A DNA stretch of 64,000 bases, taken from NCBI GenBank assembly GCA_015069135.1, contig SVJE01000006.1, forward strand, positions 98,753 to 162,752. The letters run 5' to 3'. The DNA comes from Oscillospiraceae bacterium (GTDB taxonomy: Bacteria > Bacillota > Clostridia > UBA1212 > SIG427). Of the stretch, positions 22,806 to 51,603 are shown piece after piece. Each line of letters begins with the position of its first letter. The stretch's first letter is position 1. The notes beneath the pieces are model-generated. The model was given only the letters and a program-made list of their open reading frames with translations, searched no databases and was not told the origin of the DNA. A program made the position numbers and the translations under genes.

Positions 22806-23660
22806 ATGACAATTAAAATCGCAATTAATAGCTTAGAATGGAATATTAAAATTTTTTTACCAGATAAAAAGAGTTTAAGTTTTTTTTGTAATGTGTTTTC
22901 CTGTTATGATCTCTCTTTTTCAAGTGATAAAGACAATGCGGATTGCATAGTTGAATTATGCAATGACCCAATGAAGTATAATTTAAAGTTTACAAAAAAT
23001 AATACTTATTTTGAAAAAAGAAGTATAGAGGAGATTTACGTCGCAATTTGTGTATATTTATTTAATTTAAAAAACTATTATAACGAAAATTGCTGGATTT
23101 TACATGGAGCTGCATTTATCTATAAAAAACAAACCTGTTTAATTATTGGTCCCACTCATTCAGGCAAGTCTACATTAATTACACAATTGATATCACAGAA
23201 AGGTGTAAAGTATATTACAGATGATTCTATTGTATTTGATAAAAAAACACTTAGTATTATTCCTTTTCCAAAGCCAATAAATTTAAGAGATGTCGATTGT
23301 GTATATGATTTTATTAATCATAATCATATTTACAAGGCTAATAATAAACTATTAAAAACATATGTGTATAATCCTACTAATGCAATTTTTTTGGACAAAA
23401 TTAATTGCATTAATATAAATATTTTTGTATTAAACAGAAAAAAAGAAATTAGAAATATTTCTATACAAGATATAGGTAATGTAGAACAATTTTTAGAAAT
23501 ATTATTAAATTCATTTCGAACGCAATTCTCTGAAAATTACAATATTGCAAGTAAACTTTTAAATCAAACGCAAAGTATGTTTAAAGTGAATTATAGAAAT
23601 AAAACTGAAGCTCTCGAACTTGTTTTTTCAAAGTTAGATACTACAGGTCTTAGACAATAG
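22806..23660 (+). CDS. HPr-kinase-like P-loop kinase (RiPP-associated type)
   Basis: ILHGAA, IIGPTHSGKSTL (Walker A) and YITDDS; directly upstream of the precursor. Confidence 0.75.
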   Translation: MTIKIAINSLEWNIKIFLPDKKSLSFFCNVFSCYDLSFSSDKDNADCIVELCNDPMKYNLKFTKNNTYFEKRSIEEIYVAICVYLFNLKNYYNENCWILHGAAFIYKKQTCLIIGPTHSGKSTLITQLISQKGVKYITDDSIVFDKKTLSIIPFPKPINLRDVDCVYDFINHNHIYKANNKLLKTYVYNPTNAIFLDKINCININIFVLNRKKEIRNISIQDIGNVEQFLEILLNSFRTQFSENYNIASKLLNQTQSMFKVNYRNKTEALELVFSKLDTTGLRQ

Positions 23661-23698
23661 ATATAAATTAATTATTGTACAGAAAGGAGGTGATTACA

Positions 23699-23884
23699 AT
23701 GAAATACAGTAAACCGCAAATCAAAATAATGTCAGAACATGAAATTGAAGAAAGTGTAAAAGTTATGGCTAATTCATCATTTGAAGCGGGTGGGTGTTTA
23801 ACATACGGACTCTATTCACAATGGCATTATAATTGTGATACAGGGGCCGTGGCCAATTACGATTTCTATGCCGATTTTGGTTAA
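23699..23884 (+). CDS. RiPP precursor peptide candidate 1 (61 aa)
   Basis: AAAGGAGGTG RBS then ATG 23699. MKYSKPQIKIMSEHEIEESVKVMA-NSSFEAGGCLTYGLYSQWHYNCDTGAVANYDFYADFG: YxxP leader motif, acidic leader, aromatic/Cys-rich core, next to a PqqD gene. Confidence 0.85.
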   Translation: MKYSKPQIKIMSEHEIEESVKVMANSSFEAGGCLTYGLYSQWHYNCDTGAVANYDFYADFG

Positions 23885-24131
23885 AATATAACCTGAAAAT
23901 TATACTTTGGCCTGTAGTATATTTGTTTATGTTAAGATTATAAACAAAATGATAAAAAAACAATTGTTAAATATTTTAAATGAGGAATATTGTTAAAGTT
24001 AACTTCAATGTTAGGGAAGCGGCCTTTATATGAAGCAACCAAACTCAGTTTAACAAACCTGTTAAATAAATTCATTTAAGTTATACAGATACATTTATGT
24101 ATCTATATAACATTATACGAGGAGATGTGTA

Positions 24132-24413
24132 ATGTATTATATAAAAAACAATGATTTGAATGTAGAAACATTTGAAGATGGAACAGTATTATATGATTCT
24201 GAAAAAAAAGAACTTTATTTACTAAACGAAACTGCCTCTTTTTTATGGAAAAATTGTGAAAACAATAACAAAGAAAAACTTATTAATTGCTTTTTGCTAG
24301 CATTAGAACATGAAGCAGATGCTCCTTCTTCTCATATCATAAAAGAAGAATGTAGTACCCTTATTGATATTCTAGTAAAAAAGGGAATAATTTATGAAAG
24401 GTATATAAACTGA
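24132..24413 (+). CDS. PqqD-family RiPP recognition element (RRE)
   Basis: 93 aa; VLYDSEKKELYLLNETASFLW ... LVKKGII, typical of stand-alone PqqD proteins. Confidence 0.85.
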   Translation: MYYIKNNDLNVETFEDGTVLYDSEKKELYLLNETASFLWKNCENNNKEKLINCFLLALEHEADAPSSHIIKEECSTLIDILVKKGIIYERYIN

Positions 24414-24415
24414 TT

Positions 24416-25465
24416 ATGTATAAAAATTTTATAATCAAGGGATGTTATATAGAATTGACAACAAGATGCAATTTGTCCTGCGTTCATTGTTATAATAATT
24501 CTGGTAAAGAAAATTTCCACTTGACTTTTGATAATTTAATTGGTGTATTAGATTTGTTATTAAAACATGAAGTTAAAAAAATTACGTTGTCAGGTGGAGA
24601 ACCATTTTTATATGAAAGAATATACGATTTATTAAAATATATATCTCAAAAAAACTTTTTAGTAACCTTTGCTACTAATGCTACATTAATTAATAAAAAA
24701 AATATAGAATTTATTTCTTCTCTTAAAAATAAAGAAAATATTGTTTTTCAAGTTAGTTTAGAAGGTGCAACCCCCGATACAAATGATGTAATACGGGGAA
24801 CAAATAGTTTTTCAAAAGTTATTAAAACTATTGATTTGTTAAAATGTTATAATTTAAAGTACTACTTTAGAGTGTCAATTTCCCCATTTAATTCTAATGA
24901 TATTGAAAAAATTGTTGAATTTGCAATAAAAAGAAAAACAAAGCATTTGGACTTTTCGTTTGTTTTACCATATGGCAGAGCAAGGGATAAAGCTTTATTT
25001 TTAAATGATGAACAAAAGGTTGAAGTGTTAACAAATATCATTGATTTACACAAAAAGTATAAAAAAGATATTAATGTTTTAATACCACACTTTGAACGAC
25101 AAGGTTGTCCAATTTTTGGCGAACGAAAAGAGGCTGTTGTTATTCCAAGGATTGATGCAAAAGGAAATGTTTTTCCGTGTCAACTTATGAATTTGGCAGA
25201 GTATTCTATAGGGAATATTTATAATGATAATTTGTTTGATTTACTAAAATCAGACAAATTAATAGATATAGATAATTTTATTAAATACAAAAATAAATAT
25301 AACTCTGAGTGTAAAAAATGTTATGCTTTTTCTATATGCAAATATGGCTGTCCAGCTGTAAGTGTTGGAAATAATTTGATCTCAAGCGGAGATGGTTTTT
25401 GCGAATATAGAAAAAAGGTATTTAAAGATATTTTAAATAAAAAGGTGTTTTGTGAAAAAAGTTGA
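24416..25465 (+). CDS. Radical SAM / SPASM peptide maturase
   Basis: CNLSCVHC (CxxxCxxC), SGGEP, then GCP...IDAKGNVFPC...IGNI...CKKCYAFSICKYGCP...C. Confidence 0.92.
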   Translation: MYKNFIIKGCYIELTTRCNLSCVHCYNNSGKENFHLTFDNLIGVLDLLLKHEVKKITLSGGEPFLYERIYDLLKYISQKNFLVTFATNATLINKKNIEFISSLKNKENIVFQVSLEGATPDTNDVIRGTNSFSKVIKTIDLLKCYNLKYYFRVSISPFNSNDIEKIVEFAIKRKTKHLDFSFVLPYGRARDKALFLNDEQKVEVLTNIIDLHKKYKKDINVLIPHFERQGCPIFGERKEAVVIPRIDAKGNVFPCQLMNLAEYSIGNIYNDNLFDLLKSDKLIDIDNFIKYKNKYNSECKKCYAFSICKYGCPAVSVGNNLISSGDGFCEYRKKVFKDILNKKVFCEKS

Positions 25466-27080
25466 TTTTGCTGATTATAATAGAAAAGATGATTTTCCGT
25501 CAAATACTGTAAAACGTATAAAAGAAATATTAGATAAAAAGAATATAAGTACAGTGATAACAAATTTACTTTCCTACGAAAAAGCTTGGTACTCGGTTCG
25601 AGTAGAACTTTTAGGAATAGATAATATAGGAGTTAACGGAAAAGGTATTACAAAGGAATACGCTTTGGCTAGTGCATATGCAGAATTAATGGAAAGGTTG
25701 CAAGCTGGATATTTAATCAAGCCTTATAATAAACAAGTAAAGCAGTTACTATATAAGCATACTTATATTGATTTTTTTTCGGGAGAAAAATTTAGGCTTG
25801 AAAATAATTTACTTGAAACTTCATGTGGTTCAAATGGACTTGCTGCTGGAAATACAAAAAAAGAAGCCATAGTACAGGCTTTGTGTGAGACTTTAGAACG
25901 TAAAGCAATAAAGGAAATATTTTTTTGTGAAAATTTTAATTGTGGACATTTTCCGATAAGTTATTTTGAAAATAATAAATGCTATATACTTTTAAAATAT
26001 ATTTTAGATAAAGGGTATAATCTCCTTGTTTTTGATTGTACATCTGGTGGCAAGATGCCCGTATTAGGGGTTATGATATGTGATGCAAATCAAAATAAAT
26101 ATATTTGTAAAATTGCCAGTGATATCAATATTGATATTTGTATTCAAAGATGTATTACTGAGATTTTTCAAGGTAAAAGATTTGATATAATTTTTAATAA
26201 CTGTCTAAAAAATAAATATGATAATAATATATTAATCTATAATAATGATTTTTATAAAAGTTATGAATATATAAGATTTGTAATTGATGGAAGTGGTTTT
26301 TTTCCTCCTAATGTATTAGAAAATATATTTAACAAGGAATCTTCGATATCTAATCTTAATGTTTTTTGTAATAAAAAACTTAATAATGCACAGGCGTTAA
26401 GTAAAATAAGCGTCATAGTTAAAAAATTTAGCAATAGACTCTTTATCAAAGATTACTCTATATTAGGTTTTCCTACGTATCGAATATATATACCAAATTT
26501 TAGTGAAGCATTTTTATTGCCAGGAGATACTCCTCAAAAATATATTGAAATAATAAAAGGTATACAAAAATGTGTATTTACAAACTCGCAGAGTGTTTCA
26601 AATTATACCGTTTCAAATTTATTAAAGTTTTTATATCAGGTAAACAATTTTCCGACTTTAATATATAATTTTGATTTAGCGAGAATATGTGGAATAGAAA
26701 TAACATTTAGTGCATTTCGTGATATTGATTTACTTATTGCTTTATGTCACTTATATTTAAATAATAGGTATGAGGCATTTGCGTATGTAAACAAATATTA
26801 TTTACATATACAACATCATCATGCACATATTTTTTTTAATTTATTACAATCCATGAAAAATAATAATTTTAATCAATATTTAGAATATATAAAGTTTAAC
26901 TGTAAAGATGAAAAAATTTTATTTTTTATAAATTATATTGAAATGATATGCAATAAAAAAATGGGTATATTTAATTGCGATATAAAAAATTGTAAAACCT
27001 GTTTTTTTGAAAAAAGATGTAATCATATAAAAGCTCAAAAAACTATCAACCAATTATTCGAAAGTACAGAGAATTATTAA
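25452..27080 (+). CDS. YcaO-like protein
   Basis: NGKGITKEYALASAYAELMERLQ and SNGLAAGNTKKEAIVQALCETLER ATP/Mg-binding motifs; GFPTYRIYIP. Confidence 0.88.
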   Translation: MKKVDFADYNRKDDFPSNTVKRIKEILDKKNISTVITNLLSYEKAWYSVRVELLGIDNIGVNGKGITKEYALASAYAELMERLQAGYLIKPYNKQVKQLLYKHTYIDFFSGEKFRLENNLLETSCGSNGLAAGNTKKEAIVQALCETLERKAIKEIFFCENFNCGHFPISYFENNKCYILLKYILDKGYNLLVFDCTSGGKMPVLGVMICDANQNKYICKIASDINIDICIQRCITEIFQGKRFDIIFNNCLKNKYDNNILIYNNDFYKSYEYIRFVIDGSGFFPPNVLENIFNKESSISNLNVFCNKKLNNAQALSKISVIVKKFSNRLFIKDYSILGFPTYRIYIPNFSEAFLLPGDTPQKYIEIIKGIQKCVFTNSQSVSNYTVSNLLKFLYQVNNFPTLIYNFDLARICGIEITFSAFRDIDLLIALCHLYLNNRYEAFAYVNKYYLHIQHHHAHIFFNLLQSMKNNNFNQYLEYIKFNCKDEKILFFINYIEMICNKKMGIFNCDIKNCKTCFFEKRCNHIKAQKTINQLFESTENY

Positions 27081-27541
27081 TGACAAATATTGAATATAAA
27101 ATATTATTAACAAAAATAAAGACTCTTGGAAGGTATCAGATATATGTATCGGGAATGAGCATGTTTCCGTGTTTGTTGCCAAATGATTTGATAACAATAG
27201 AGTCACAAGATGAATATAATATTGGAAATGTTGTTGTTTTTTTATATAAGCATGGAGAGATATTGGTCCATAGAATTGTTAAAAAAAATAATTACACTAT
27301 TTTTTGCAAAGGTGACAATTCGTTTCGATTGGAAGATATACAAGAGTCACAAATTGTTGGAAAAGTAATATCTTATTGTAGAAATGGTTTGAATTGTCTG
27401 ATTAAAGCTGCTGACGAAGAATTTATTAATATGTCATATAGAGTTGGTCAGGAGTTTAGAAAAGTTGGGTATGATAAAGAGAAACTAATGTTGACAAAAA
27501 ACTATATCAAATATTATTATAGATATATAAAAATAGATTAA
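27080..27541 (+). CDS. S24/S26-family peptidase
   Basis: SGMSMFP (Ser), LVHRIV (His) and KGDN motifs; TAATG overlap with the YcaO stop codon. Confidence 0.82.
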   Translation: MTNIEYKILLTKIKTLGRYQIYVSGMSMFPCLLPNDLITIESQDEYNIGNVVVFLYKHGEILVHRIVKKNNYTIFCKGDNSFRLEDIQESQIVGKVISYCRNGLNCLIKAADEEFINMSYRVGQEFRKVGYDKEKLMLTKNYIKYYYRYIKID

Positions 27542-27574
27542 GCCATATACAATGGTTTTGATAAGGAGTTAACT

Positions 27575-28231
27575 ATGTTGGAATTTGCGATGTGGGTAAT
27601 AGGTATAATTGCTTTCTTGGTGTGGGGTATTCCTGTAATTAAATTTATTATCAAGCGTTTATGGTTTGCTTTTCGTCTGTTTTTGAAGTCTACATTTTGT
27701 AAAGGTTTTGAATATTGCTATAAAAATCCATTTTCTGTTTTTTCTTTACGAAGAGGCAGGAATTCTGATGTATTGGTTTATTATGGTGGAACCATATATA
27801 TTATAAAACTGTGCGGTGTGTTTAGAAAATTTACTGATATCATTGTACATGATAATGATTTCTGGCAGATTGATACATATATTGGCACGGGATATTTGTT
27901 CAGAGGCACTAAAAATACAGACACAGAGAAGGTTTTGTTTAATTTACCCAGAGAAAAAGAATCGTTTGAAAGTAATATATGGAATATTAGCGGAATTAGT
28001 CAGATAAATACAATGCTATTGTTGTTGCCAAAACCAAAAGCTTTTGGAGTTCATGTAGAGACTTACAATGAATGGTTGTGTAGCGGTAATTTATGTGGTG
28101 GGAATATTGTAGGAACCACAAGATATTTTTGGAGAACACTTAGAGAGCTTAAAGAAGAATCGGAAAACTTCATGTATGTTGACGAAAAGCAATGGGAGTT
28201 AATTAAAAAGGAGTATAAAAAAGCTAAATGA
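27575..28231 (+). CDS. Hypothetical protein with N-terminal membrane anchor
   Basis: aaggag RBS; hydrophobic N-terminus; overlaps the next gene. Confidence 0.6.
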   Translation: MLEFAMWVIGIIAFLVWGIPVIKFIIKRLWFAFRLFLKSTFCKGFEYCYKNPFSVFSLRRGRNSDVLVYYGGTIYIIKLCGVFRKFTDIIVHDNDFWQIDTYIGTGYLFRGTKNTDTEKVLFNLPREKESFESNIWNISGISQINTMLLLLPKPKAFGVHVETYNEWLCSGNLCGGNIVGTTRYFWRTLRELKEESENFMYVDEKQWELIKKEYKKAK

Positions 28232-29733
28232 AACTAAGTTTGTTTTCACGAGAATATGTTCATACTGATTTACAATATGAAGACAACCTGAAAATGCGAG
28301 CTTTTTTTGAGCACTTTTATTCCAAAGAAACAAGTAAACTTCTTTTGGATTTTTGTTCTGTATATTGCGATAAGAAAGAACTTGTAAAGCGACAGAGCTT
28401 TTTTCGAGAGATAACAGAGAAAACTAAATGTAGGGAATTTTTAAAAAGTATAAGAAGCTTTTATCGTGATGTAGAAAATGCTGTTTTGATTTACAAAAAA
28501 AAGACGGATTTGCCTGACAAAGATATTTGGGGCATAAATCTCCTTAATCAATATGCTAAGTTTGTAAAATCAGTTATTGAAATTAAGAGTGGCTCAGGTT
28601 TGGAATTTTGCTCGGAGATATTAAAGTCGTTCTATTGTAAGATAGAAAACTTTTATGTTTCAGAAGGTTTTTACGATTTATGTAAAAGTTTGGATGATGT
28701 TGAATTAAAGCTTTCGGAAATAAGGCAAATGAATATTTATGGTGATTATATTAATGCCCTTATTTCTTCCTATGGCTTGAAATCCGGAGTCCAAGAAAAT
28801 ATCTATGAGACAATAGCTTTATATCTATCCGATTTGGGTTTAGAATCTCCTAAAAAAACGAATGTTTCTAATGCCAGGGATATGGATTTATATGAAAAAT
28901 ATATTAGTTATATTGTATCAAAAACACCGGCTGTTTCAGAAGTACTAAGAAAAGTCAATGATAAATTTTCAGAATTAATACAGTCAATAGAATTGATAGA
29001 AATTACAGATATAAAGACTTCTTTAGCATGTTGTGAATTGTATGATATGTTAGTAAAAAATAAAATTCACTTGTGTTATCCATTGATTTCTGAAGATGGT
29101 AGTTTTTCTGTGAAAGATGCAAGTGATATAACATTACTGATGCAAAAAGATAATATAATTACTAACAGTATGGATCTTTCGAAAAGTGAGCAGGTATCTT
29201 TTATTTCTGGTGCTAATGGTGGTGGAAAAACTTCGTTTGTAAGAGCTTTAGGTATTTGTAATGTGATGTTCTCCTGTGGTTTATTTGTTCCGGCGATTTC
29301 AGGAAAATTTTCCATATGTGATAACATTTTTACAGTGTTTCCCCATAAAGAGCTGATATATCAAGAAGGGCGTTTTGTTGCTGAAAAAGGTTTTGTTGAA
29401 AAAGTGATGTCTGAAGCAACTCCTAACAGCTTGGTTTTGACTAATGAACTGTTTTCCAGTACAAATGAGTCAAAAGGCTGTAAGCATTATGAGCTTATTG
29501 TGTCGGGATTGCAAGAAAAAGGGGTTCGCTCATTTTTAGTTACACATTTTACAGATGTAATAGAGATTTTTGCTTCAAAAAATTATCCATGCTTTTCTTG
29601 TGTAATGGAGAATGATGTTGTAACTTTTAAAATTGAAAGAACCGGAAAACATTCTTCTTCTGTAAATATCATATTAGAAAAATATAGTTTAAGAAAACAT
29701 CAGTTGAAAGAGAGGTTAGAGTTAAATGATTGA
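28228..29733 (+). CDS. MutS-related ATPase-domain protein A
   Basis: ISGANGGGKTSFVRALG, GLFVPA, LVLTNELFSSTN and FLVTHF (MutS domain V); no mismatch-binding domain recognised. Confidence 0.75.
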   Translation: MKLSLFSREYVHTDLQYEDNLKMRAFFEHFYSKETSKLLLDFCSVYCDKKELVKRQSFFREITEKTKCREFLKSIRSFYRDVENAVLIYKKKTDLPDKDIWGINLLNQYAKFVKSVIEIKSGSGLEFCSEILKSFYCKIENFYVSEGFYDLCKSLDDVELKLSEIRQMNIYGDYINALISSYGLKSGVQENIYETIALYLSDLGLESPKKTNVSNARDMDLYEKYISYIVSKTPAVSEVLRKVNDKFSELIQSIELIEITDIKTSLACCELYDMLVKNKIHLCYPLISEDGSFSVKDASDITLLMQKDNIITNSMDLSKSEQVSFISGANGGGKTSFVRALGICNVMFSCGLFVPAISGKFSICDNIFTVFPHKELIYQEGRFVAEKGFVEKVMSEATPNSLVLTNELFSSTNESKGCKHYELIVSGLQEKGVRSFLVTHFTDVIEIFASKNYPCFSCVMENDVVTFKIERTGKHSSSVNIILEKYSLRKHQLKERLELND

Positions 29734-31075
29734 TAAGAATACAGTTTCTAACCTTAATTTGACCGATATAACAAGAGTGTTTTGTATTAATGAAAAACAG
29801 TGTGGATATGTTGTCGAAGTCTTATCTTCCATAGAAAAATCACCTGAGATAATTAGAAAAAAACAGGAAATTGTAAAGGATTTTGTAAATAATCCTGATT
29901 TTTTTCTTGATTGTAAAAATGTGTTGGCACAGTTTGAAGGGGTTATTTCTGAACGGAAAACAGTAAAGCGACTATCTTTTCAACCTCGTAGCATATATGA
30001 AGCTAATCAAAGAAAGAAAACCAGAACAACATTTGGTAATCTTTCTGATATATCAAAAATGTTGCTTAAATATATTCGATTGTATGTTAATATGAGCAAT
30101 TTGTTTAATAAATACAATTTTAAGTCTGAATATATGACAGACCTTAAAGAGTATTTTGTTAACTTTGCTACTAAAGAAAGTTTTCAGAAGTTTGGAAATG
30201 TTATAAATCAGCTTTCTAATATAGAAGTTGAAAATAGTAACATTTGTATGAATGTTCTTCTTGATAAAGAAATCGGCAAAATACATGTTTTCTTTGTTTC
30301 TGTTAATGGGGAAAAACAAAGTCCTGGGATAGAATTTGTCAATCAGACAGATACAGAAATTATTACAAGACTTACAGGGGTTGCTGTTAAAGATTTATGC
30401 GATTATCTTAATGATATTGTTGAAATCATGGAAGATAAACTGTTAAGTTTTTATGATGAGCTTATGTTTTATAGATTTGCCATCAGATACATCGAGGAGC
30501 TAAAGGAAAGAGGTTTACCGATTTCATATCCTGATATTGCTGATGAAAATGACAAAATTCATTTTAATGAACTTTATAGTATAGAGTTAATAGCAAAAAA
30601 TCTTACTAAAATAGTGCCACATGATATAGAACTTTCGCGCTTCACTGTTTTGCATGGAGACAATAATACCGGAAAGACATGCTATGTAAGAAGTGTTGCT
30701 TTGGCATATATTTTTGCCCAGGCGGGTCTTCCTTTACCAGCCATATCAGGTGTGATTTCTCCAGTAACAAATATACTTTCTCAGTTTGCCGTAGGAGAGA
30801 AGAATTTGGGACGATTTGAGGAAGAAGTAAGTGAAGTAAGTGAAATTGTAGATAAAGTAAACTCTAAAACATTGATTATTTTCAATGAAACATTTCAAAG
30901 CACGGTTTATGAAGAGATTGCTCAACCTTATATGGATATACTTGAAGGTATTGTATCAGCAGGAGGGCATGCATTGGTTGTTTCACATAATGAAATGTTT
31001 ATTGAGCTTTGTACGAAAAAAACAGATGTGACATTGTTAAAAATGGATAATGAACATAAGATAATAAATAGTTAA
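29726..31075 (+). CDS. MutS-related ATPase-domain protein B
   Basis: LHGDNNTGKTCYVRSVALAYIFAQAGLPLPA, GRFEEE, IIFNETFQST and VVSHN motifs. Confidence 0.75.
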   Translation: MIDKNTVSNLNLTDITRVFCINEKQCGYVVEVLSSIEKSPEIIRKKQEIVKDFVNNPDFFLDCKNVLAQFEGVISERKTVKRLSFQPRSIYEANQRKKTRTTFGNLSDISKMLLKYIRLYVNMSNLFNKYNFKSEYMTDLKEYFVNFATKESFQKFGNVINQLSNIEVENSNICMNVLLDKEIGKIHVFFVSVNGEKQSPGIEFVNQTDTEIITRLTGVAVKDLCDYLNDIVEIMEDKLLSFYDELMFYRFAIRYIEELKERGLPISYPDIADENDKIHFNELYSIELIAKNLTKIVPHDIELSRFTVLHGDNNTGKTCYVRSVALAYIFAQAGLPLPAISGVISPVTNILSQFAVGEKNLGRFEEEVSEVSEIVDKVNSKTLIIFNETFQSTVYEEIAQPYMDILEGIVSAGGHALVVSHNEMFIELCTKKTDVTLLKMDNEHKIINS

Positions 31076-32483: not shown

Positions 32484-32485
32484 AT

Positions 32486-35361: not shown

Positions 35362-35363
35362 GT

Positions 35364-40478: not shown

Positions 40479-40496
40479 AAAGGAACGGTGATTATT

Positions 40497-41654: not shown

Positions 41655-41671
41655 TTGATCAGGGTAATAAT

Positions 41672-43163: not shown

Positions 43164-43175
43164 GGAATTTTAAAT

Positions 43176-43988: not shown

Positions 43989-44921
43989 ATGTACCAGGAA
44001 TTGCAGATTGAAGACTTTATTGATGAAGAAATTAGTATAGATGTACAAAAATTTCTAGGTGAAAATGATATAAGTGAATATTTCAATAAAGAACAATTTC
44101 ATTTAGTTTTTTTGTCAAAAGGTAAATTAAGTGGAAATATAGATAATCGAAAATACAATTTGTATTCTCCTTTAATAATTTGTCTTAGTGATAGAAATGT
44201 AGTTGAAAAGTTTGTATGTGATCGATGGTCTGAAGTTTATATAATTTCTTTTAATCCAATCGTACTTAATCAAAATTTAAATATAGAACATATTTACTAT
44301 AAGACCTATACACAACTATCTGAAAAACATTACTTAAAACAATTAGAGCCTTTTATGGAAAAAGAGGTTTCTCGTAAATGTTTTTCAATTAACCAACAAT
44401 CAGCACAGTCATATCTAAATAGGATTTTGAAACTTGAAAAATATTTAACAGAGAAAAAAGATTCTTTCTGGTACTTTCGTGCAAGAAGTGAATTAGTAGT
44501 GTTGTTATATTTTATTGAAAATATAATGCTTAATTATATGTCAAAAAAACAAAAGGATATTATACCTACAGAATTTGCAAATATTATTAAATATATAGAT
44601 GAACATATATCTGAAACAATTACATTGAAATTTTTATATGATAATTTCTATATTAATGCAAATAAAGTAGAGGAACTATTCAATATACATTACGGAACAA
44701 CCTTTAGAAAGTATATAAGGGAAAAAAGACTGGAAATTGCAAAGGATAAGCTTCGATTTACAAGTTTATCTAATAAAAGTATTGCAAGCCTAATAGGTCT
44801 TTCAACTTCACAAAACTTCTGTAAATTTTTTAAAAGCATGACAGGTACATCACCTGAGGTTTTCAGAAAAGAGCAGGTGGCTGAAAGAAGTGAAGAGCCA
44901 AGGTTAAAGAAACCTGTGTAA
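43989..44921 (+). CDS. AraC-family regulator (paralog 4)
   Basis: Double HTH, GLSTSQNFCKFFKSMTGTSPEVFRKEQ; alignable with paralogs 1 and 2. Confidence 0.88.
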   Translation: MYQELQIEDFIDEEISIDVQKFLGENDISEYFNKEQFHLVFLSKGKLSGNIDNRKYNLYSPLIICLSDRNVVEKFVCDRWSEVYIISFNPIVLNQNLNIEHIYYKTYTQLSEKHYLKQLEPFMEKEVSRKCFSINQQSAQSYLNRILKLEKYLTEKKDSFWYFRARSELVVLLYFIENIMLNYMSKKQKDIIPTEFANIIKYIDEHISETITLKFLYDNFYINANKVEELFNIHYGTTFRKYIREKRLEIAKDKLRFTSLSNKSIASLIGLSTSQNFCKFFKSMTGTSPEVFRKEQVAERSEEPRLKKPV

Positions 44922-45093: not shown

Positions 45094-46455
45094 ATGTCTA
45101 GAGTGGCTATAATTGGCGAAAATTCAATTGAATACATTGAAAAACTTCTTGAAATTTGGAACGCAGGTGATTGTGCGGTTCTAATTGACAGAAAGACTCC
45201 TTTAGGAACAGCGCATGAAATGATAATGGAAGCAGCTGTGCATAAGTGTTATATAGAAGAACATATATTTAAAAAATGTGAAAACTATTTACCGACAAAT
45301 ATTGAGCTTTCACCATTCAAGTGTACAACACATTCTGCTACAGTTTTAAAAAAAGAAATATATGAAAAGTATAGAGATAATTACAGTAGTAATGAGGCTC
45401 TCGTAATATATAGTTCAGGGACAACCGGTAAATCTAAAGGCATTATTCTTTCTCATTATGCAATCAGTACAAATGCAAATGCGATTATTGACTATATGAA
45501 ACCAAATTGTAATGATTGTATATATATTGTGAAATCGTTGACACATTCATCGACATTAATTGGGGAATTATTAGTAGGCCTTAAATCTAACGCAAAATTA
45601 ATTGTGGCTCCAACAATTGTTCCTCCAAGACACATTGTTGGTAATGTTAAAGAAAAAAAGGCTACCATACTTTGTCTTAATCCTATGCTTCTTTCATTAA
45701 TAAGTGAATATGTTATACAAAATAAATGCCAGTTCTCATTTCTGAAAAAAATTTATGTTAGTGGATCTATTTTGAGTGATAAAACATATGAACGTGCTCA
45801 CTATGCATTCAAAAATATACCTATATATAATGCATATGGTTTATCGGAAGCAGGACCGCGAGTGGCAGTGCAACGGGATGATTGCTGCAAGAATAATTCA
45901 GTAGGTAAGCCAATAAAAGGAGTAGAATTAATACTTGTTGATAAGCAAGGTAGTCCAGTAAAAAAAGGTAGTTGTGGAATCATTCATATAAATACCAAGA
46001 GTCAATTTCTAGGTTATATATCCGGAAATGAAAAACACAAATCATTATATCATGGATGGTTAAATTCAGGAGATGTCGGATATATCGATGAACGAGATGA
46101 GTTACATATTGTAGATAGAGTTGATGATGTCATAGTAATTAATTCACATAAAATATATCCGAGTGATATTGAAAATCAAATTTTGGCTAATCTTCCGTTT
46201 AATGATTGCGCTGTTGTTCCATTCAAAAACGGAAATAGGTGTTATATCGGCTGTTTGTATACGACGAATATTGAAGTTAAAGATATTCGTCGACAGCTTA
46301 TGAACGTTTTGCTCCCTTATGAGATACCTGAAGTTTTTTTCAGAAGTGATTTCATGCCACGAACAATAAATGGAAAAATTTCAAAGAATAATATACAAAA
46401 AATATTGCAAAAAGAAGTGAGAGGAAGAATTAAAGATGGAAATTACAAGCGTTAA
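45094..46455 (+). CDS. Adenylate-forming ligase 2
   Basis: YSSGTTGKSK, YGLSEAGP, SGDVGY, DRVDDVI and NGKI motifs. Confidence 0.9.
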   Translation: MSRVAIIGENSIEYIEKLLEIWNAGDCAVLIDRKTPLGTAHEMIMEAAVHKCYIEEHIFKKCENYLPTNIELSPFKCTTHSATVLKKEIYEKYRDNYSSNEALVIYSSGTTGKSKGIILSHYAISTNANAIIDYMKPNCNDCIYIVKSLTHSSTLIGELLVGLKSNAKLIVAPTIVPPRHIVGNVKEKKATILCLNPMLLSLISEYVIQNKCQFSFLKKIYVSGSILSDKTYERAHYAFKNIPIYNAYGLSEAGPRVAVQRDDCCKNNSVGKPIKGVELILVDKQGSPVKKGSCGIIHINTKSQFLGYISGNEKHKSLYHGWLNSGDVGYIDERDELHIVDRVDDVIVINSHKIYPSDIENQILANLPFNDCAVVPFKNGNRCYIGCLYTTNIEVKDIRRQLMNVLLPYEIPEVFFRSDFMPRTINGKISKNNIQKILQKEVRGRIKDGNYKR

Positions 46456-46732
46456 ATTAGAGTTAATGGTCATACTAATGAGACTTTTTTCTTGCAAAGG
46501 TTTTAATGAAAGTCATTTCGAGTATATGAACTTAATAGAGGATATGGGAATGGATTCTATTAATTTTATTACCCTTATAGTTGAAATTGAAAAAAGATTT
46601 AATATCATAATTCCAGATGATACATTACTTATGGAGAATTTCAAAAGTATAAATGATATTATTTTAATAGTGGAACAACAGATTAATTGTAAATCTAAAA
46701 TTGAAGAGAGGAAAATTAATGCTAAAACTTGA
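46436..46732 (+). CDS. Acyl carrier protein 4
   Basis: MGMDSINFITLIVEIEKRFNI. Confidence 0.85.
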   Translation: MEITSVKLELMVILMRLFSCKGFNESHFEYMNLIEDMGMDSINFITLIVEIEKRFNIIIPDDTLLMENFKSINDIILIVEQQINCKSKIEERKINAKT

Positions 46733-47951
46733 ACACATATTAAAATACATTTCGGAAAACAATGAGTTTTATAAAAATGTTATTAAGAAGTATGAAATAT
46801 CTAATAGCATGGATATATTACAATATCCAATGCTTACAAGAAAGCAACTTCAAGAGCATCGATATAATATGTTTTCAGAAGGATATAAAACTAAATATTT
46901 TTATCAACAACTTAAACGTCAGTCTTCTTCTGGATCATCAGGTGTTCCAGTAAATGTATATTGGGATTATAAAGATTGGTATGCATCAAATCTATCACTG
47001 TGGCGCAAAAGATATCAATGGTATCAGATTTTACCAAGTGATAACTTGATAAAGTTTGAGTTAAATATATTTGATGACAAGGTGAATGGCAGTGATATTT
47101 ATTTTATTCAAAATCCTGAAAACATACTTACTATCAATGTCTCATTACTTTGTTCAGATGAAGCATATTTAAAAGTTGTTGAAGCTATAAACCAGTTTAA
47201 ACCTGTTTGGTTATATGTTCAACCATTTGTACTAAATAAGCTGATTAATATTATTGAAAAATATAATGTAAAAAAACCGGAAAGCTTGAAGCATATTGAG
47301 TTTGTCGGGGAGATATTATCCTCAGATTTAAGAAGAAGAACTGTTGATTTTTTTGGAGTAACTATATCAAATTTATATGGGTCGGAAGAAATGAATGGAA
47401 TTGCATATGAGTGCCCTTGTCATAATATGCACATTCTGGAAGACAATGTTTATGCTGAAGTTTTAAACAAAAATGGATTTGAAATTAGTGGCAGAGGAGA
47501 AGCTGTGATTTCAAATTTAAACAATTATTGTATGCCACTTATTCGATACAATTTGGAAGATCAAATTATTTTAAATGAACATCAAACTTGTGCCTGTGGC
47601 TGTAGCTCTGCAATTATTGATGTAATTATTGGAAGAAGTCGTGAAAGTGTTCTTACAGATAAGGGAGTTGAAATAAATTCGTTTATGTTGGCGGAAGTGA
47701 TTTCTGAAGTAAATAATCAATTTAATGATATTATTAGAGAGTATAGATATACTTTTTTTAAGGCAAAACAGATATTATTATGTGAAATAAGACTTGAATA
47801 TGGGAAAAGTCATTGGTTTTGTAATGTGAAAAGATGTATAAACAATATTTTTATAATAAAATTAGGGAATAATTATATAACTGAAATAGAGGTAAAACTA
47901 GTCGATGCTATTTATAAGAATAAGAAAAGAAAGATTTTGAATATTGTTTGA
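46719..47951 (+). CDS. Phenylacetate-CoA-ligase (PaaK/CapK)-like adenylating enzyme
   Basis: SSSGSSGVP, LYGSEE..IAYECP, MPLIRYNLED and IIGRS motifs. Confidence 0.82.
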   Translation: MLKLEHILKYISENNEFYKNVIKKYEISNSMDILQYPMLTRKQLQEHRYNMFSEGYKTKYFYQQLKRQSSSGSSGVPVNVYWDYKDWYASNLSLWRKRYQWYQILPSDNLIKFELNIFDDKVNGSDIYFIQNPENILTINVSLLCSDEAYLKVVEAINQFKPVWLYVQPFVLNKLINIIEKYNVKKPESLKHIEFVGEILSSDLRRRTVDFFGVTISNLYGSEEMNGIAYECPCHNMHILEDNVYAEVLNKNGFEISGRGEAVISNLNNYCMPLIRYNLEDQIILNEHQTCACGCSSAIIDVIIGRSRESVLTDKGVEINSFMLAEVISEVNNQFNDIIREYRYTFFKAKQILLCEIRLEYGKSHWFCNVKRCINNIFIIKLGNNYITEIEVKLVDAIYKNKKRKILNIV

Positions 47952-47972
47952 TATAATATAAGGAGGATAGGA

Positions 47973-49352
47973 ATGAAAGAAATACCAATGGATTGTCCTG
48001 TGTTTAAAATATTTTACTATAAAGACAATTATTTTTTATATGATACTTATACAAATAGTATATTTAAAATATTGAAATCACATTTTGAAGAATTATATTT
48101 ATTGCAAAATATAGGGATTTCTAATTATGTTAATCTTAATAAATCTACCAAGGAATATAATGATGTTTTACATTTAATTAACAAAGGAATGTTGAAATTT
48201 GGGTTTATTAAAAAAGTAGAACATCCTGAAACATGTAATATAAAATTCCTTCTTGACAGATGTGTAAATGATATTACTTTGCAAGTTACACGTGATTGCA
48301 ATTTTAAATGTCGATACTGTTTGTATGCAAATGATAGTAAAACAGAGAGAAATCATGAAGATATTAATATGTGTTGGGAAACAGCAAAAAAAACTATAGA
48401 TTTTTTGTATCAACATTCTATAGATGTTGATACTGTTAATATTTCTTTTTATGGTGGGGAACCGTTGCTCAACTTTGATTTGATTGTTAAAACAGTCAAT
48501 TATGCTAGTGAAAAATTACAGACTAAAAAAGTGCATTATAATATGACAATTAACGGTTCATTGTTAACGGACAATATTATTAATTTTTTAATATTGCACA
48601 ATTTTGATATTTCAATTAGCCTTGATGGACCCCAAAAAATACAAAATAATCATCGCAAGTTTCTTAGAACGGGTGGTGATACATATGATACGGTAATAAA
48701 AAAAATAAATAGTATAAGACGGTTAAGCGAATCATATTTTATGCAACATGTTTATTTTTTGCCAGTTTATTTAAATGATGAAAATTATCAAGAAGTATAT
48801 GACTTTTTTGAAAAGATTGGAGTAATGAAGGATAAAGTTACACCAATTAAAGCAAATTTAGGAGGCATGGATTATATCCTTAGTGAGTGGAAAATTCATA
48901 ATTTAAATAAAAAAAAGAATGGATTAATTAAGGGTTATACAGAAAATGAGATTTCTAAGATCAATAAGATAATAAATAATAAAAATTTACTTCCTCCGTG
49001 CTGGCATCATAACGGGCAATGTATCCCGGGTGTACAGCGTGTTTTTATAGATGTCTATGGAATTATGTACCCTTGTGAAAAAATCACAGAAAACAAGTCA
49101 TTTTCAATTGGCAATATACAAGAAGGTTTTGATGTTGAACGAATTATAAAGTTTCTTAATGTTGGCAAATTGACAGCAACTGAATGTAAAAAATGTTGGG
49201 CAATGAGATTTTGTGAAGGGTGTATATCTTTATGTAATGATATAGATTTATGTGATATAACACGAGATCGAAAACTGGTCTCGTGTGAAAAACAGAAAGA
49301 AAAAGCTCTATATGATATTAAATCCTTTATTGATAGAACTAGTAAGCTTTGA
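47973..49352 (+). CDS. Radical SAM/SPASM maturase, CcpM-like, with N-terminal RRE-like region
   Basis: TLQVTRDCNFKCRYC, FYGGEPLLN, CIPGVQRVFID..G..YPCEK and CKKCWAMRFCEGC resemble clostridial Cys-rich peptide maturases (recalled as TIGR04068; needs an HMM check). Confidence 0.8.
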   Translation: MKEIPMDCPVFKIFYYKDNYFLYDTYTNSIFKILKSHFEELYLLQNIGISNYVNLNKSTKEYNDVLHLINKGMLKFGFIKKVEHPETCNIKFLLDRCVNDITLQVTRDCNFKCRYCLYANDSKTERNHEDINMCWETAKKTIDFLYQHSIDVDTVNISFYGGEPLLNFDLIVKTVNYASEKLQTKKVHYNMTINGSLLTDNIINFLILHNFDISISLDGPQKIQNNHRKFLRTGGDTYDTVIKKINSIRRLSESYFMQHVYFLPVYLNDENYQEVYDFFEKIGVMKDKVTPIKANLGGMDYILSEWKIHNLNKKKNGLIKGYTENEISKINKIINNKNLLPPCWHHNGQCIPGVQRVFIDVYGIMYPCEKITENKSFSIGNIQEGFDVERIIKFLNVGKLTATECKKCWAMRFCEGCISLCNDIDLCDITRDRKLVSCEKQKEKALYDIKSFIDRTSKL

Positions 49353-49362
49353 GGTAATTAAT

Positions 49363-50289
49363 ATGTGTAAAATATTTTTATGTACAGATTCCTACGCATT
49401 AAGAACATTACATTGTTCTCTTGATTATGTTTTAAATGTAAAAGTTAAAGAAATAATTGTTTTAAAGGAAAATTATAAAAAAGATGAGGTGTGCAAAAGG
49501 CGTTCGGATATTAAAATTACTGTATATGACACGATATATGAATGTATCTTAAATAGCGAATGGACAATTATTGTTTCTAACTCAAATATACCAGCAAAAA
49601 CAATTGATTATATTAAACAGGTATCTCATAATATGAAAAAAGGATACTATTTTATTGAGAATCCTTGGAACTTGGAAAGTGAACTCAATGATAGACTTAT
49701 TTTTTCAATTAAAGGCTCAGAAGTTAGCACTTTGCCAATTATAGCTCAAGTATCTTTAGGAATTTTATCGCAACCTTATTTTACGGAAATTGCTTTAAAC
49801 AAAAAGTTTAGCAAAGAAAATATTAAAGTTCGACAAATTTTTACCGACGAAACTAATAGATTGTTAAATGAATTAAATAAATGTGAACTGTTAAATGGCT
49901 CGTTGTCGAATCAAATTGATAATCGTGTGAAGAATTTTGATATTTTATGCTACTCTATAAATGTTGGAAATGATATATATAGCATTAAGAATTATATTCA
50001 TTTATTCTCAAATTTAAAACCTGATTATTTAATTTTACAAACAGATTTTCGTTTTAATAATTATGATTTAGCAAACCAAATTGTAAAATACTGGTGTTTT
50101 TCTGATTTGGATATAATACTTAAGTCGCATTATACATTGTCAGACCAAAAATATAAGCTATATTGTGATGAGCAGTTATCTTTGAAAGAAAATGTATTAG
50201 ATATAGAATCAGCAGAAGTAGAAGAAAATCTGTTTCGTTCTATTTTTAATAAACTGTCTCTACCAAAGGGGATTTTTAGAATAAGCTAG
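49363..50289 (+). CDS. Peptide maturation system protein, TIGR04066-like (tentative)
   Basis: Follows the CcpM-like gene; LPII...G...EIAL...F..ENIKVRQI pattern; gaggt RBS before ATG 49363. Confidence 0.45.
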   Translation: MCKIFLCTDSYALRTLHCSLDYVLNVKVKEIIVLKENYKKDEVCKRRSDIKITVYDTIYECILNSEWTIIVSNSNIPAKTIDYIKQVSHNMKKGYYFIENPWNLESELNDRLIFSIKGSEVSTLPIIAQVSLGILSQPYFTEIALNKKFSKENIKVRQIFTDETNRLLNELNKCELLNGSLSNQIDNRVKNFDILCYSINVGNDIYSIKNYIHLFSNLKPDYLILQTDFRFNNYDLANQIVKYWCFSDLDIILKSHYTLSDQKYKLYCDEQLSLKENVLDIESAEVEENLFRSIFNKLSLPKGIFRIS

Positions 50290-50318
50290 AAATGTTAAAT
50301 TACTAGTAATAATTATCG

Positions 50319-50588
50319 GTAGTTAGAAAGTGCTGATGTAAAAGAGAAAAAACTAGGGAGGTGAAATAATGATATTTGAAAAAACAACGAGTTTTTCGGG
50401 TGCAACGCCTTTAGCAAAATGTTCTGGTTGCAGTAACAGTGGCGAGCAAGTATTTCAAACAAATTTATCAGGGTTTTTGGCACATAATGCTGGTAGATGT
50501 ACAACAAAAGGTTAATTTTATTTAAATTTATTTACTTATAATGATGTTTTAAGGAAGGATTCCTTTTACATTAGCACTTTCTAACTAC
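50319..50588. repeat. 26-bp inverted repeat pair enclosing a small ORF
   Basis: GTAGTTAGAAAGTGCTGATGTAAAAG (50319-50344) versus CTTTTACATTAGCACTTTCTAACTAC (50563-50588): 25/26 complementary, and the one mismatch is a G-U pair in RNA. Confidence 0.9.
50369..50515 (+). CDS. RiPP precursor peptide candidate 2 (48 aa, absent from the ORF track)
   Basis: GGGAGGTG RBS 7 nt before ATG; MIFEKTTSFSGATPLAKCSGCSNSGEQVFQTNLSGFLAHNAGRCTTKG; directly downstream of the CcpM-like module. Confidence 0.75.
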   Translation: MIFEKTTSFSGATPLAKCSGCSNSGEQVFQTNLSGFLAHNAGRCTTKG

Positions 50589-50793
50589 TGAATAATTAAA
50601 TGTGAAATATTGCACAAAATTATTATTGCTATATAAATATATTAAGTTACACATATTTTATGATGAGATAAATTTTTTCTTTAATCTTGCTTTTTAACTA
50701 TAAATTGATATATTCTGACTTGATTTTATGTAAAAATTGTTGTAATGTGTGAAGTGTTGATTAATAAGTAAAAGCTTTCTGGAGGGATATTAT

Positions 50794-51603
50794 ATGAAAA
50801 AAATACCGTTTGTGCATTTTATGGATTATTTATTCAAATATGATAAATCCATTCCGGGTGAAGTGTTACTCGATAATTACTGTGTATATAAAGAAAACTA
50901 TTTATCAGGGAAATCAAGTTCTGACTTTTATTATAAATCAGGCTTTGTAATTGACTTTTCCACATATATAAACAATGATGAATGTACAGTGTTCTGCTTT
51001 TTGCATCAGATTAATGATTTATGCGATATTGAAAGTGTACTTAATTCAGTGCGAGTATTAATTGATGAACAACAAAAAGTTTTTAGGGTGTCATATGAAA
51101 TATTTGCTTCTGTAAAAATGTCCATCGCTGAAAAATTTGTCGACAGTATCGAGATGTACAGATTCAAGCGTTATGGTATAAGTTATCGTTCTAGTTTCAA
51201 TATTCAAAAAATTAGCAATGAAGATATTGGTACAGTAAAGAGTGTGATTGCAGAAAAAATTGAAAATGATTCTCATTTTGGAAGAGTGATAGCAAAAGGA
51301 TTTATGGATTTTTGTTGTGACGATATTAACAAATTGATAGGGTGTTTTGAAGAAGATAAACTTTGTGGAATAGCCTCATATGCATTTTTTGAGGAAGCTG
51401 ATATGGCTGAATTATCAAGTATATATGTATTGCCTGAGTTTCGAAATATTGGTGTTGGAAAAGAATTAGTACTATCTGCTTTAAATGAATATCCTAATAA
51501 ACAATGGATATACCAGGCCGGAGCAAAAAATGAGATGTCAATTAGACTTGCCCAATCTACGGGGTTTAAGCTTTCCGGAGCGGCCTTATATATTCGTGTA
51601 TAA
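50794..51603 (+). CDS. GNAT-family N-acetyltransferase
   Basis: LSSIYVLPEFRNIGVGKELV (motif A) and NEMSIRLAQSTGF. Confidence 0.82.
   Translation: MKKIPFVHFMDYLFKYDKSIPGEVLLDNYCVYKENYLSGKSSSDFYYKSGFVIDFSTYINNDECTVFCFLHQINDLCDIESVLNSVRVLIDEQQKVFRVSYEIFASVKMSIAEKFVDSIEMYRFKRYGISYRSSFNIQKISNEDIGTVKSVIAEKIENDSHFGRVIAKGFMDFCCDDINKLIGCFEEDKLCGIASYAFFEEADMAELSSIYVLPEFRNIGVGKELVLSALNEYPNKQWIYQAGAKNEMSIRLAQSTGFKLSGAALYIRV

Follow-up and report, generated by a model that had tools for sequence, protein, structure and literature searches.

A 29-kb co-oriented gene island of an Oscillospiraceae bacterium read as a mosaic of peptide-modifying and acyl-carrier modules

Does a long row of biosynthetic genes that all point in one direction encode a single pathway, or have several pathways come to lie side by side? 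This question is raised by an island of ~ 31 co-oriented genes (+ strand, 29 kb, positions 22806-51603) in a 64,000-nt stretch of an Oscillospiraceae bacterium genome (GCA_015069135.1, contig SVJE01000006.1, 98,753-162,752), which is referred to here as the window. The island carries genes for peptides that are made on the ribosome and modified after translation (RiPPs) together with genes for acyl carrier proteins (ACPs) and adenylating enzymes, and an initial annotation had read it as one 29-kb system with two precursors, while allowing for two or three clusters side by side. The latter option is closer to the truth. We regard the island as a mosaic of three evolutionary modules, units A (22806-34072), B (34280-44921) and C (45094-50515), in which A and B form one gene cluster and C is an independent neighbour, a reading that we hold with somewhat better than even confidence. 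The direct evidence consists of gene content, conservation patterns, the conservation of catalytic residues and protein fold; all of the chemistry is deduced from the protein families.

The modular structure becomes visible when the island is compared with other genomes (compared loci are designated by L numbers). Among 60 related genomes, no relative of the whole island was found, apart from two distant YcaO matches. In every sampled relative (L012-L015), the block around the CcpM-like radical SAM (rSAM) enzyme stands alone with its own precursor and ATP-binding cassette (ABC) exporter; the block of BtrH-like, ABC, MetK and LoaP genes ends at an AraC gene in L006 and L007 and is free of RiPP genes in L011 and L032; and the nearest relatives of the YcaO protein (33-37% identity) lie in a different cassette (L016-L018). 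A single system of ~ 31 genes, in which both precursors would be cross-linked and acylated from a common ACP-borne pool, could draw on the co-orientation of the genes, the uniformly low GC content, the presence of LoaP and the lone strong terminator after the GNAT gene. Against it stand the unit-B relatives that end at AraC and the fact that unit C is complete elsewhere: it brings ligases, an ACP and a precursor of its own, and no unit A or B genes accompany it in the four sampled loci. We consider such a system very improbable. The idea behind it, namely, that RiPP peptides are tailored from ACP-borne units, nevertheless holds at a smaller scale: conserved co-occurrence supports it for unit A (ACP-FkbH in L024, L027, L029 and L030) and, separately, for unit C (the CcpM-like rSAM gene always accompanied by ligase, ACP and PaaK-like genes), and not for the 29-kb whole. 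Long co-oriented arrays containing LoaP can thus be mosaics, and caution is needed when they are interpreted.

Gene families were called by Pfam and NCBIfam scans of the island proteins with curated cut-offs applied. All of the families that had been listed before were recovered at 22806-51603 on the + strand, although two MutS-domain-V ATPases (28228-31075) and a membrane protein (27575-28231) had been overlooked. The island lies between groEL (21046-22674) and an aldose epimerase/tRNA region (51699-52948), and its GC content is 0.26-0.31 per 2-kb bin, with a single exception of 0.35 around metK, compared with 0.34-0.41 in the flanks. The majority of gene junctions overlap or span less than 35 bp. 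Larger gaps occur at 23884/24132 (247 bp), 31075/31327 (251 bp), 34072/34280 (207 bp), 43859/43989 (129 bp) and 44921/45094 (172 bp), as well as on both sides of precursor 2 (79 and 278 bp), and only one strong terminator-like hairpin was found, at 51657-51685, just 3' of the GNAT gene. The four ACP genes (starting at 32238, 35122, 36766 and 46436) all encode the DS[IL] attachment motif, and three adenylating enzymes are present (35364, 45094 and 46701).

What, then, is encoded by unit A? Its genes are the following:

22806..23660, + strand: HprK-related (LppK-like) kinase, putative, 284 aa (TIGR04352 E 3.6e-11, below cut-off; P-loop matches)
23696..23884, + strand: precursor 1, MKYSKPQIKIMSEHEIEESVKVMA / NSSFEAGGCLTYGLYSQWHYNCDTGAVANYDFYADFG, 61 aa (YxxPxI leader, predicted V-x-A cleavage site, two-Cys core)
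24132..24413, + strand: discrete PqqD-type RiPP recognition element (RRE), 93 aa (PF05402 E 5.7e-8, 33.4 bits vs cut-off 23.4)
24416..25465, + strand: rSAM/SPASM peptide maturase, 349 aa (PF04055, PF13186)
25452..27080, + strand: stand-alone YcaO, 542 aa (PF02624 E 7e-31)
27080..27541, + strand: S24/S26 archaeal-type signal-peptidase-I-like leader peptidase (LppS-like), 153 aa (PF00717; TIGR02228 E 1.8e-10)
27575..28231, + strand: membrane-anchored protein, 218 aa (no Pfam or NCBIfam match; N-terminal hydrophobic helix)
28228..29733 and 29726..31075, + strand: two paralogous MutS-domain-V/KamC-like ATPases, 501 and 449 aa (PF00488)
31327..32241, + strand: PF14907 NTP transferase (LppN-like, NTP5; 71.9 bits vs cut-off 31.2)
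from 32238, + strand: ACP81 (DS[IL] motif; ends 2 bp upstream of FkbH)
32486..34072, + strand: FkbH, 528 aa, with an N-terminal extension of ~ 215 aa (TIGR01686 229.5 bits vs cut-off 146.65)

The gene combination had initially been described as unrecognised, which needs updating: the core of this block is that of the LPP system (PMC13381572), and the acyl transfer free of ketosynthase (KS) and condensation (C) domains follows the logic of CtaG (PMC7183216; see unit B). The LPP core set, published in May 2026, comprises an HprK-like kinase, a precursor with a YxxP leader, an RRE, an archaeal-type signal peptidase and a PF14907 NTP transferase; LppK polyphosphorylates core Ser3, and the peptidase takes off the leader (PMC13381572). 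LppN is inactive alone, and the authors postulate a missing substrate-supplying partner encoded elsewhere; no radical SAM enzyme, FkbH, ACP or Clostridia are mentioned in that paper (PMC13381572). With the LPP cluster (lppAKBSDN) of Paenibacillus alginolyticus (Popov et al., Nat Commun 2026, PMC13381572), unit A shares the discrete RRE, the SpI-like peptidase and the PF14907 protein, and further similarities are the YxxPx[I/V/L] leader and Ser at core positions 2-3; a putative HprK-like kinase and, within unit B, an MsbA-like ABC exporter are also encoded. In contrast to LPP, unit A adds an rSAM/SPASM enzyme, YcaO, two MutS-like ATPases and ACP-FkbH; therefore, a linear product is not expected. 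The host also differs (Clostridia versus Bacilli), as does the position of the ABC gene, which is located 7 kb from the peptidase gene, inside unit B. Judged from its genes, unit A thus appears to be an rSAM- and YcaO-elaborated relative of the LPP RiPP family with ACP/FkbH additions.

The precursor is in line with this assignment in part. Precursor 1, which probably starts at ATG 23696, has the N-terminus MKYSKPQIKIM... and matches [Y/W]xxPx[L/V/I], the leader motif of LPP and lasso RREs (PMC13381572); the leader end V-M-A fits the -3/-1 rule, and the predicted core begins with N-S-S. From the LPP leader motif YxxPxVLxHQxIxFETxxS, only the Y-S-K-P-Q-I part is present, and the remainder (KIMSEHEIEESVKV) does not fit. 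The leader type Y-x-[KR]-P-x-[IV] is shared with small peptides of L027 (MYEKPMITV...), L029 (MKKYNKPIVIS...) and L030 (MAYTRPTVMS...), the cores of which contain two or three Cys residues. As a weak lead, a loose resemblance exists between the core of precursor 1 (TYGLY...H.NC..GA) and the peptides encoded in the YcaO cassettes of L016 and L018 (...GLYGEAHGGKCNCAGA).

The assignments of the individual enzymes differ in strength. The kinase reaches 42.7 bits with TIGR04352 (cut-off 200) and has no PF07475 match, and BLAST values of e-11 to e-15 were obtained against the kinases in loci L024, L027 and L030, which were found through FkbH. For the S24/S26 peptidase, TIGR02228 is the best NCBIfam match, yet below the cut-off; its motifs SM.P, HR and KGDN are common to L024, L027 and L030, and the RRE gene lies 2.7 kb upstream. 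The two MutS-like ATPases, 26% identical to each other, have MutS ATPase domain V only, with the KamC reactivase ATPase as the best NCBIfam match; they were not found in any related locus and are specific to the window within the RiPP operon. The best homologues of YcaO among 5.8 billion proteins show 33-37% identity, with none above 37%, and these nearest relatives occupy another cassette (L016-L018) consisting of rSAM, ACP-like, short peptide, ~ 600-aa protein, YcaO and ABC genes; therefore, YcaO can be regarded as a window-specific addition to unit A. No YcaO partner (E1/Ocin-ThiF-like or TfuA) was detected among the cluster proteins by Pfam/NCBIfam, the RRE being a discrete PqqD. In the RiPP-like YcaO cassettes of L016 (6170-13574) and L018 (6432-13497), the rSAM enzyme has 430-440 aa, the 76-77-aa ACP-like protein carries a DSL motif, the peptide ends in ...GE[AG]HGG.C.C.G., the ~ 600-aa protein is a DUF1611 member in L018, and agr genes adjoin the cassette in L016.

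The kinase and PF14907 pair, the B1-type RRE and the YxxP leader are also known from the paeninodin and pseudomycoidin lasso peptide clusters (PadeK, PsmN; PMC6993621). Unit A differs from these in lacking the cyclase and B2 protein, in the signal-peptidase-like removal of the leader that its peptidase would provide and in having an rSAM enzyme in place of the class-defining enzyme. A lasso cluster was rejected, as neither an Asn-synthetase-like cyclase nor a B2 transglutaminase-like protease was found among the cluster proteins by Pfam/NCBIfam.

These data raise a further question: is the association of RiPP genes with ACP-FkbH peculiar to this genome, or does it recur? To answer it, 185,579 species genomes were scanned with two patterns taken from the FkbH N-terminal extension only, and eight loci were returned. 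In L024, L027, L029 and L030, ACP-FkbH (48-57% identity) lies within 10 kb of genes resembling the 349-aa rSAM/SPASM enzyme, PF14907 and ABC genes. An HprK-like kinase and an S24 peptidase are also encoded in L024, L027 and L030, and PqqD is encoded in L027, L029 and L030. Homologues of the 349-aa rSAM/SPASM enzyme (e-40) adjoin FkbH in L024, L029 and L030. L026 contains the NTP5/ACP/FkbH trio, a distant rSAM gene and an ABC gene, and L025 contains ligase, ACP, BtrH-like and rSAM genes. In the window, this trio is translationally coupled, with junctions of -4 and +2 bp, and the trio or a pair of its genes was found at 48-62% identity in L007/L020, L024 and L026-L030. A seed consisting of FkbH only thus recovers ACP-FkbH beside RiPP genes in at least four metagenome-assembled genomes of Clostridia, and therefore, the RiPP/ACP hybrid is real and recurrent.

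Some of these loci have features of their own. In L024, an S24 peptidase with a C-terminal PqqD-like domain (a peptidase-RRE fusion) is encoded at 9593-10354, and integrase-like ORFs are inserted between the FkbH and kinase genes (6446-8652). In L026, a tandem pair of peptides whose leaders are acidic and helical (...DELDEIEMLCGCTGK[RS]C...) is encoded at 4164-4487, between a 349-aa P-loop protein and an ABC gene and near a 469-aa rSAM enzyme; the precursor type differs, yet this locus also has NTP5/ACP/FkbH.

Unit A resembles FkbH/OzmB-type glyceryl-ACP formation in having an FkbH above the cut-off and a dedicated adjacent ACP. Unlike the polyketide and tetronate FkbH systems, it contains no FkbI/FkbK-type dehydrogenase, polyketide synthase or tetronate genes, its FkbH bears the clade-specific N-terminal extension, and its context is that of a RiPP. 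Our literature search revealed no paper connecting FkbH with RiPPs or with RiPP radical SAM systems, and no description of unit A or unit B was found in the literature searched. FkbH glyceryl units and CtaG-like ligases have been reported so far only in polyketide, aminoglycoside and nonribosomal contexts, so a link to RiPPs would add a new decoration route, and the NTP transferase coupled to ACP-FkbH in this Clostridia branch is a testable candidate for the missing substrate-supplying partner of LPP.

Another important question concerns the nature of unit B, which follows FkbH after the 207-bp gap and is composed of the following genes:

34280..35125, + strand: probable CtaG-like papain-fold protein, 281 aa (C19/H119/D137 invariant; conserved in L006 and L007)
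35122..37029, + strand: ACP79, AMP-ligase (470 aa) and ACP87 (PF00550, PF00501; DSL/DSI motifs)
37022..37726, + strand: LamG/concanavalin-like protein, 234 aa (PF13385 E 2e-12; ~ 60% identical in L006 and L007)
37723..38679, + strand: CtaG/CcbD/BtrH-like carrier-protein-dependent papain-fold ligase, 318 aa (PF14399 weak; fold matches)
38688..40478, + strand: MsbA-like ABC exporter, 596 aa (PF00005; TIGR02203 5e-70; 75-77% identical in L006 and L007)
40488..42244, + strand: MetK and LoaP antiterminator (TIGR01034 583 bits; NF033641 149.8 bits vs cut-off 125)
42231..43163, + strand: second CtaG/BtrH-like protein, ~ 310 aa, referred to below as the 331-aa paralogue (hhalign probability 98.9 vs the 318-aa family)
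43176..43859, + strand: lipoprotein, 227 aa, candidate immunity protein (lipobox LFASC)
43989..44921, + strand: AraC regulator, 310 aa (PF12833; relatives of unit B end here)

A search of the 5.8 billion proteins gave only seven homologues of the 318-aa BtrH_N protein, and residues C17, H116/H119 and D137/D139 are invariant in this family; in the 331-aa paralogue, the invariant residues are C18, H118/H121 and D141. PDB sequence searches with the 318-, 331- and 281-aa proteins and with the 334-aa protein of unit C returned nothing meaningful. The AlphaFold (AF2) model of the 318-aa protein (pLDDT 80) gave full-length Foldseek matches to AziU3/U2, CtaG and CcbD with E values from 1e-7 to 1e-3; for CtaG, E was 4e-7 over ~ 330 aligned columns at a sequence identity of ~ 15%. 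CcbD is the lincosamide condensation enzyme, the structure of which has been solved with its peptidyl carrier protein. The count of three such proteins given in the initial annotation is secure for 37723-38679 and 42231-43163, which hhalign joins, whereas for 34280-35125 it depends on the residue pattern and a low-confidence model (pLDDT 52). The top Foldseek matches of this model are CtaG and CcbD, and hhalign found the 281-aa family unrelated to the BtrH family and to the proteins that follow FkbH. Because Cys19/His119/Asp137 are kept and the model matches CtaG/CcbD first, the 281-aa protein is a probable third CtaG-like member.

Could the BtrH-like proteins instead be stand-alone C39-type leader peptidases that serve ABC exporters lacking a peptidase domain, with the ACPs serving otherwise? 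Weak Peptidase_C39_2 matches would fit, as would the position of two of the genes, which abut an ABC gene without a C39 domain (37723 before the ABC gene at 38688, and 17209 after that at 15379), and PCAT1/ComA peptidase domains occur among the lower Foldseek matches of the 281-aa model. The top full-length matches, however, are CtaG, CcbD and AziU3/U2, which have the same two-domain papain-plus-helical architecture, and no C39 peptidase was present among the significant Foldseek matches of the confident 318-aa model. Moreover, the family is multiplied (at least six copies) in a nonribosomal cluster rich in ACPs and ligases, and the precursors have no double-glycine leader end. Owing to the fold matches to CtaG and CcbD, the peptidase assignment was rejected, and we regard it as improbable.

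CtaG is a papain-like transacylase: it takes the acyl group that is bound to one carrier protein and passes it to an amine on a second carrier protein (PMC7183216). On the basis of the fold, the Cys/His/Asp residues and this mechanism, unit B is a CtaG-type thiotemplate module free of condensation domains and a new variant of this logic. Like closthioamide assembly (CtaG/CtaH/CtaI/CtaE; PMC7183216, PMC12865890), CcbD and BtrH, it has stand-alone ACPs with the Ser motif, a stand-alone adenylating loader and the CtaG/CcbD-type fold with Cys-His-Asp, and it contains neither C nor KS domains. In contrast to closthioamide, it lacks the ATP-grasp CtaD, the CtaF decarboxylase and the CtaC thioamide synthetase, and it is accompanied by FkbH, LamG, MetK, LoaP and an adjoining RiPP core; no ATP-grasp family match (iterative ATP-grasp, CtaD) was obtained in the 31 island proteins with Pfam/NCBIfam.

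The unit recurs outside the window. In L006 and L007, the order is 281-aa protein, (ACP), LamG, BtrH-like protein, ABC, MetK, LoaP, second BtrH-like protein, ~ 230-aa protein/lipoprotein and AraC, at 28-77% identity, and sigma-70 and cotJ genes come after AraC, ending the cluster. L006, L011 and L032 belong to one 58-kb contig in which the unit B module stands at the end of a co-directional cluster that spans 35 kb or more. This cluster encodes at least five ACPs, at least four adenylating enzymes and at least six BtrH/CtaG-like proteins, as well as a pyridoxal phosphate enzyme, an rSAM enzyme, an aminoacyl-tRNA-synthetase-like protein, an acyl-CoA dehydrogenase/electron transfer flavoprotein (ACAD/ETF) set, a phosphopantetheinyl transferase (PPTase), a glycosyltransferase, MetK and LoaP; no RRE, kinase, peptidase, FkbH or YcaO genes and no condensation domain were found in it. 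It is possibly a large closthioamide-like pathway. The copy of unit B in L007 (5572-7035, 13364-14320) looks decayed: only the last ~ 50 residues of the 470-aa ligase are left, in fusion with ACP-LamG, ACP79 is distributed over two frames and AraC is broken in two, although assembly errors are possible.

Do units A and B cooperate in this genome? We consider this slightly more likely than not. Wherever an A-type locus was sampled with its flanks intact, it carries an ABC gene of its own, whereas unit A has none here, and the only ABC gene of the cluster is that of unit B. The L007/L020 lineage repeats the juxtaposition of an A-like unit and unit B, with the SPASM C-terminus, an Hpr_kinase_C protein, a CxxCxxCC protein, NTP5, ACP and FkbH followed by unit B; the contigs of this lineage end inside the SPASM gene, so that the comparison covers the part downstream of it. 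BtrH/C39-like proteins come after FkbH in L026 and L028, the metK of unit B is combined with an upstream rSAM gene in all three lineages, and no strong terminator was found between A and B.

Several observations weigh against a joint cluster of A and B. Unit B is also found at the end of a RiPP-free nonribosomal cluster (L011, L032), so that a ribosomal peptide is not required for it; in other genomes, A-type loci occur without unit B; and gaps of 207 bp between FkbH and unit B and of 251 bp between the rSAM-YcaO operon and the NTP5 trio are present. A paralogous ABC (73% identity) encoded 6 kb upstream could serve unit A, and the copy of unit B in the L007 lineage shows signs of partial decay, with a deleted ligase, a frameshifted ACP and a split AraC. 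Similarly, the assignment to the LPP family is weakened by the extended leader motif (LxHQxIxFETxxS), which is absent from precursor 1, and by the putative kinase, which is assigned from below-threshold matches.

Part of the same evidence would suit three fully independent clusters gathered at a shared integration hot spot, with A making a cross-linked phosphorylated glyceryl-peptide, B a small nonribosomal amide metabolite of the closthioamide-like kind and C its own peptide. The RiPP-free setting of unit B, the A-type loci without B, the C-type loci without A and B, the gaps of 207 and 172 bp at the unit borders and the upstream set of ABC, BtrH-like and AraC genes that could serve unit A all agree with such independence. 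It leaves several points unexplained: unit A here has no ABC gene of the kind present in its relatives, the A-like/B juxtaposition is seen again in L007/L020, unit B of the window has no SAM-using enzyme that would justify metK, and this unit has a single ligase to set against two ACPs and three CtaG-like ligases, so that amine acceptors are unaccounted for. We therefore consider full independence unlikely, although it deserves more weight than either the single system or the peptidase reading.

The upstream set mentioned above is located at 14237-20517 of the window, upstream of groES/groEL, and encodes an AraC protein of 308 aa, an ABC protein of 596 aa, a BtrH/C39_2-like protein of 267 aa, an AraC protein of 305 aa, a 122-aa ORF and an AraC protein of 178 aa. 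Its ABC protein (from 15379) is 73% identical to that of the cluster in a gap-free alignment, and the 267-aa protein (17209) is 34% identical to the 331-aa paralogue. Possibly, these genes serve one of the units as a reserve for export or immunity.

For units A and B, the following steps can be proposed. The discrete PqqD RRE would bind the 61-aa precursor 1 via the Y-S-K-P-Q-I leader, the rSAM/SPASM enzyme would cross-link the two-Cys core, most likely through thioethers as the family suggests, and YcaO would activate a backbone amide with ATP. The HprK-like kinase may phosphorylate a Ser near the new N-terminus (core NSS; the LppK target is core Ser3), and the SipW-like peptidase would cut after V-M-A. 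The NTP-transferase/ACP/FkbH trio would make glycolysis-derived glyceryl-S-ACP and decorate the peptide directly or via the phosphate handle. In unit B, the one ligase would load an acid onto ACP79 or ACP87, and two or three CtaG-like Cys-His-Asp papain-fold ligases would pass ACP-bound acyl groups to amines. Most likely, with A and B acting as one cluster, the peptide would be acylated from ACP-borne units and exported by the unit B pump, while MetK would feed the rSAM enzyme, LoaP would sustain the long transcript and the lipoprotein may protect the producer. A product of this kind, an LPP-type peptide that is rSAM-cross-linked, YcaO-modified and acylated with glyceryl and a second ligase-loaded unit by the CtaG-like ligases, with ACP/FkbH as the missing partner of LppN, is a tentative proposal that we rate clearly below an even chance. 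If true, this would be the first case in which a RiPP is tailored by thiotemplate chemistry that works without condensation domains.

The remaining question is whether unit C has a precursor and an evolutionary history of its own. Its features are as follows:

45094..50289, + strand: AMP-ligase (453 aa), ACP98, PaaK-like protein (416 aa), CcpM-like rSAM (459 aa) and 334-aa protein (Pfam/NCBIfam)
50369..50515, + strand: precursor 2, MIFEKTTSFSGATPLAKCSGCSNSGEQVFQTNLSGFLAHNAGRCTTKG, 48-codon ORF (homologous small ORFs at the same place in relatives)

The order of the ligase, ACP, PaaK-like, rSAM and ~ 300-aa protein genes is kept in L012-L015 at 30-55% identity and is followed by an ABC exporter gene; the CcpM-like rSAM/SPASM enzyme (gene at 47973-49352) has thousands of homologues. 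The flanks in these four loci contain type IV secretion system, recombinase, toxin-antitoxin or agr genes and never genes of unit A or B. Small ORFs with a strong ribosome-binding site lie 3' of the ~ 300-aa gene in L012, L013 and L014 and are homologous to precursor 2. Their sequences (window, MIFEK...CSGCSNSGEQVF..N...RC; L012, VKFEK...CSGCSNYGQQVY; L013, MTFEK...CYGCSNNGQEVY; L014, VNFEK...CSGCSNQGQQVY) share the family signature C[SY]GCSN.G..V[YF]. Because these ORFs and the five genes recur together, precursor 2 is real and unit C is self-contained; it is an independent, widespread cassette that is often located on mobile elements and would mature its own C[SY]GCSN-type peptide. Gut anaerobes thus possess a mobile and widely distributed peptide cassette that includes an ACP, and its clear precursor signature could be used in genome mining.

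Unit C resembles the Cys-rich peptide system catalogued by Haft (TIGR04068 CcpM rSAM and TIGR04069 ACP-related protein) in its rSAM/SPASM enzyme, ACP-related protein and small Cys peptide. Compared with that system, its scores are 360.5 bits versus 500 for TIGR04068 and 32.9 versus 70 for TIGR04069, and it has two adenylating enzymes and the ~ 300-aa protein in addition; from these matches, it appears to be a sister of the catalogued system. Precursor 2 matched no NCBIfam peptide model at E<=10, and no experimental characterisation of TIGR04068/CcpM was found in the literature searched. The ORF of precursor 2 is bracketed by a long inverted repeat (window 50319-50588), and the homologues in L013 (~ 12340-12600; GCACTATGGCTAGCAGAAG / CTTCTGCTAGCCATAGTGC) and L014 (~ 12285-12530; AATAAGTGGAAGGAA / TTCCTTCCACTTATT) are bracketed alike, a pattern suggestive of a conserved stem that surrounds the peptide gene and stabilises the mRNA or takes part in its processing.

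The last gene of the island is the following:

50794..51603, + strand: GNAT acetyltransferase, 269 aa (PF00583; last gene before the terminator-like site)

It is missing from the relatives of unit C, which have an ABC gene at that position, and it is kept apart from the three units here. Within the AT-rich island, promoter matches were no commoner than in shuffled sequence, an Rfam scan detected no riboswitch or leader element, and no integrase was seen at either island border. A single PF01648 PPTase match was present in the 1.9-Mb genome, on another contig (G000:C2:45996-46166), and the island with its four ACPs is without a PPTase gene of its own. A tRNA gene (52876-52948) lies ~ 1.3 kb downstream of the island, and a tetrahydrofolate (THF) riboswitch (54332-54430) is located further downstream.

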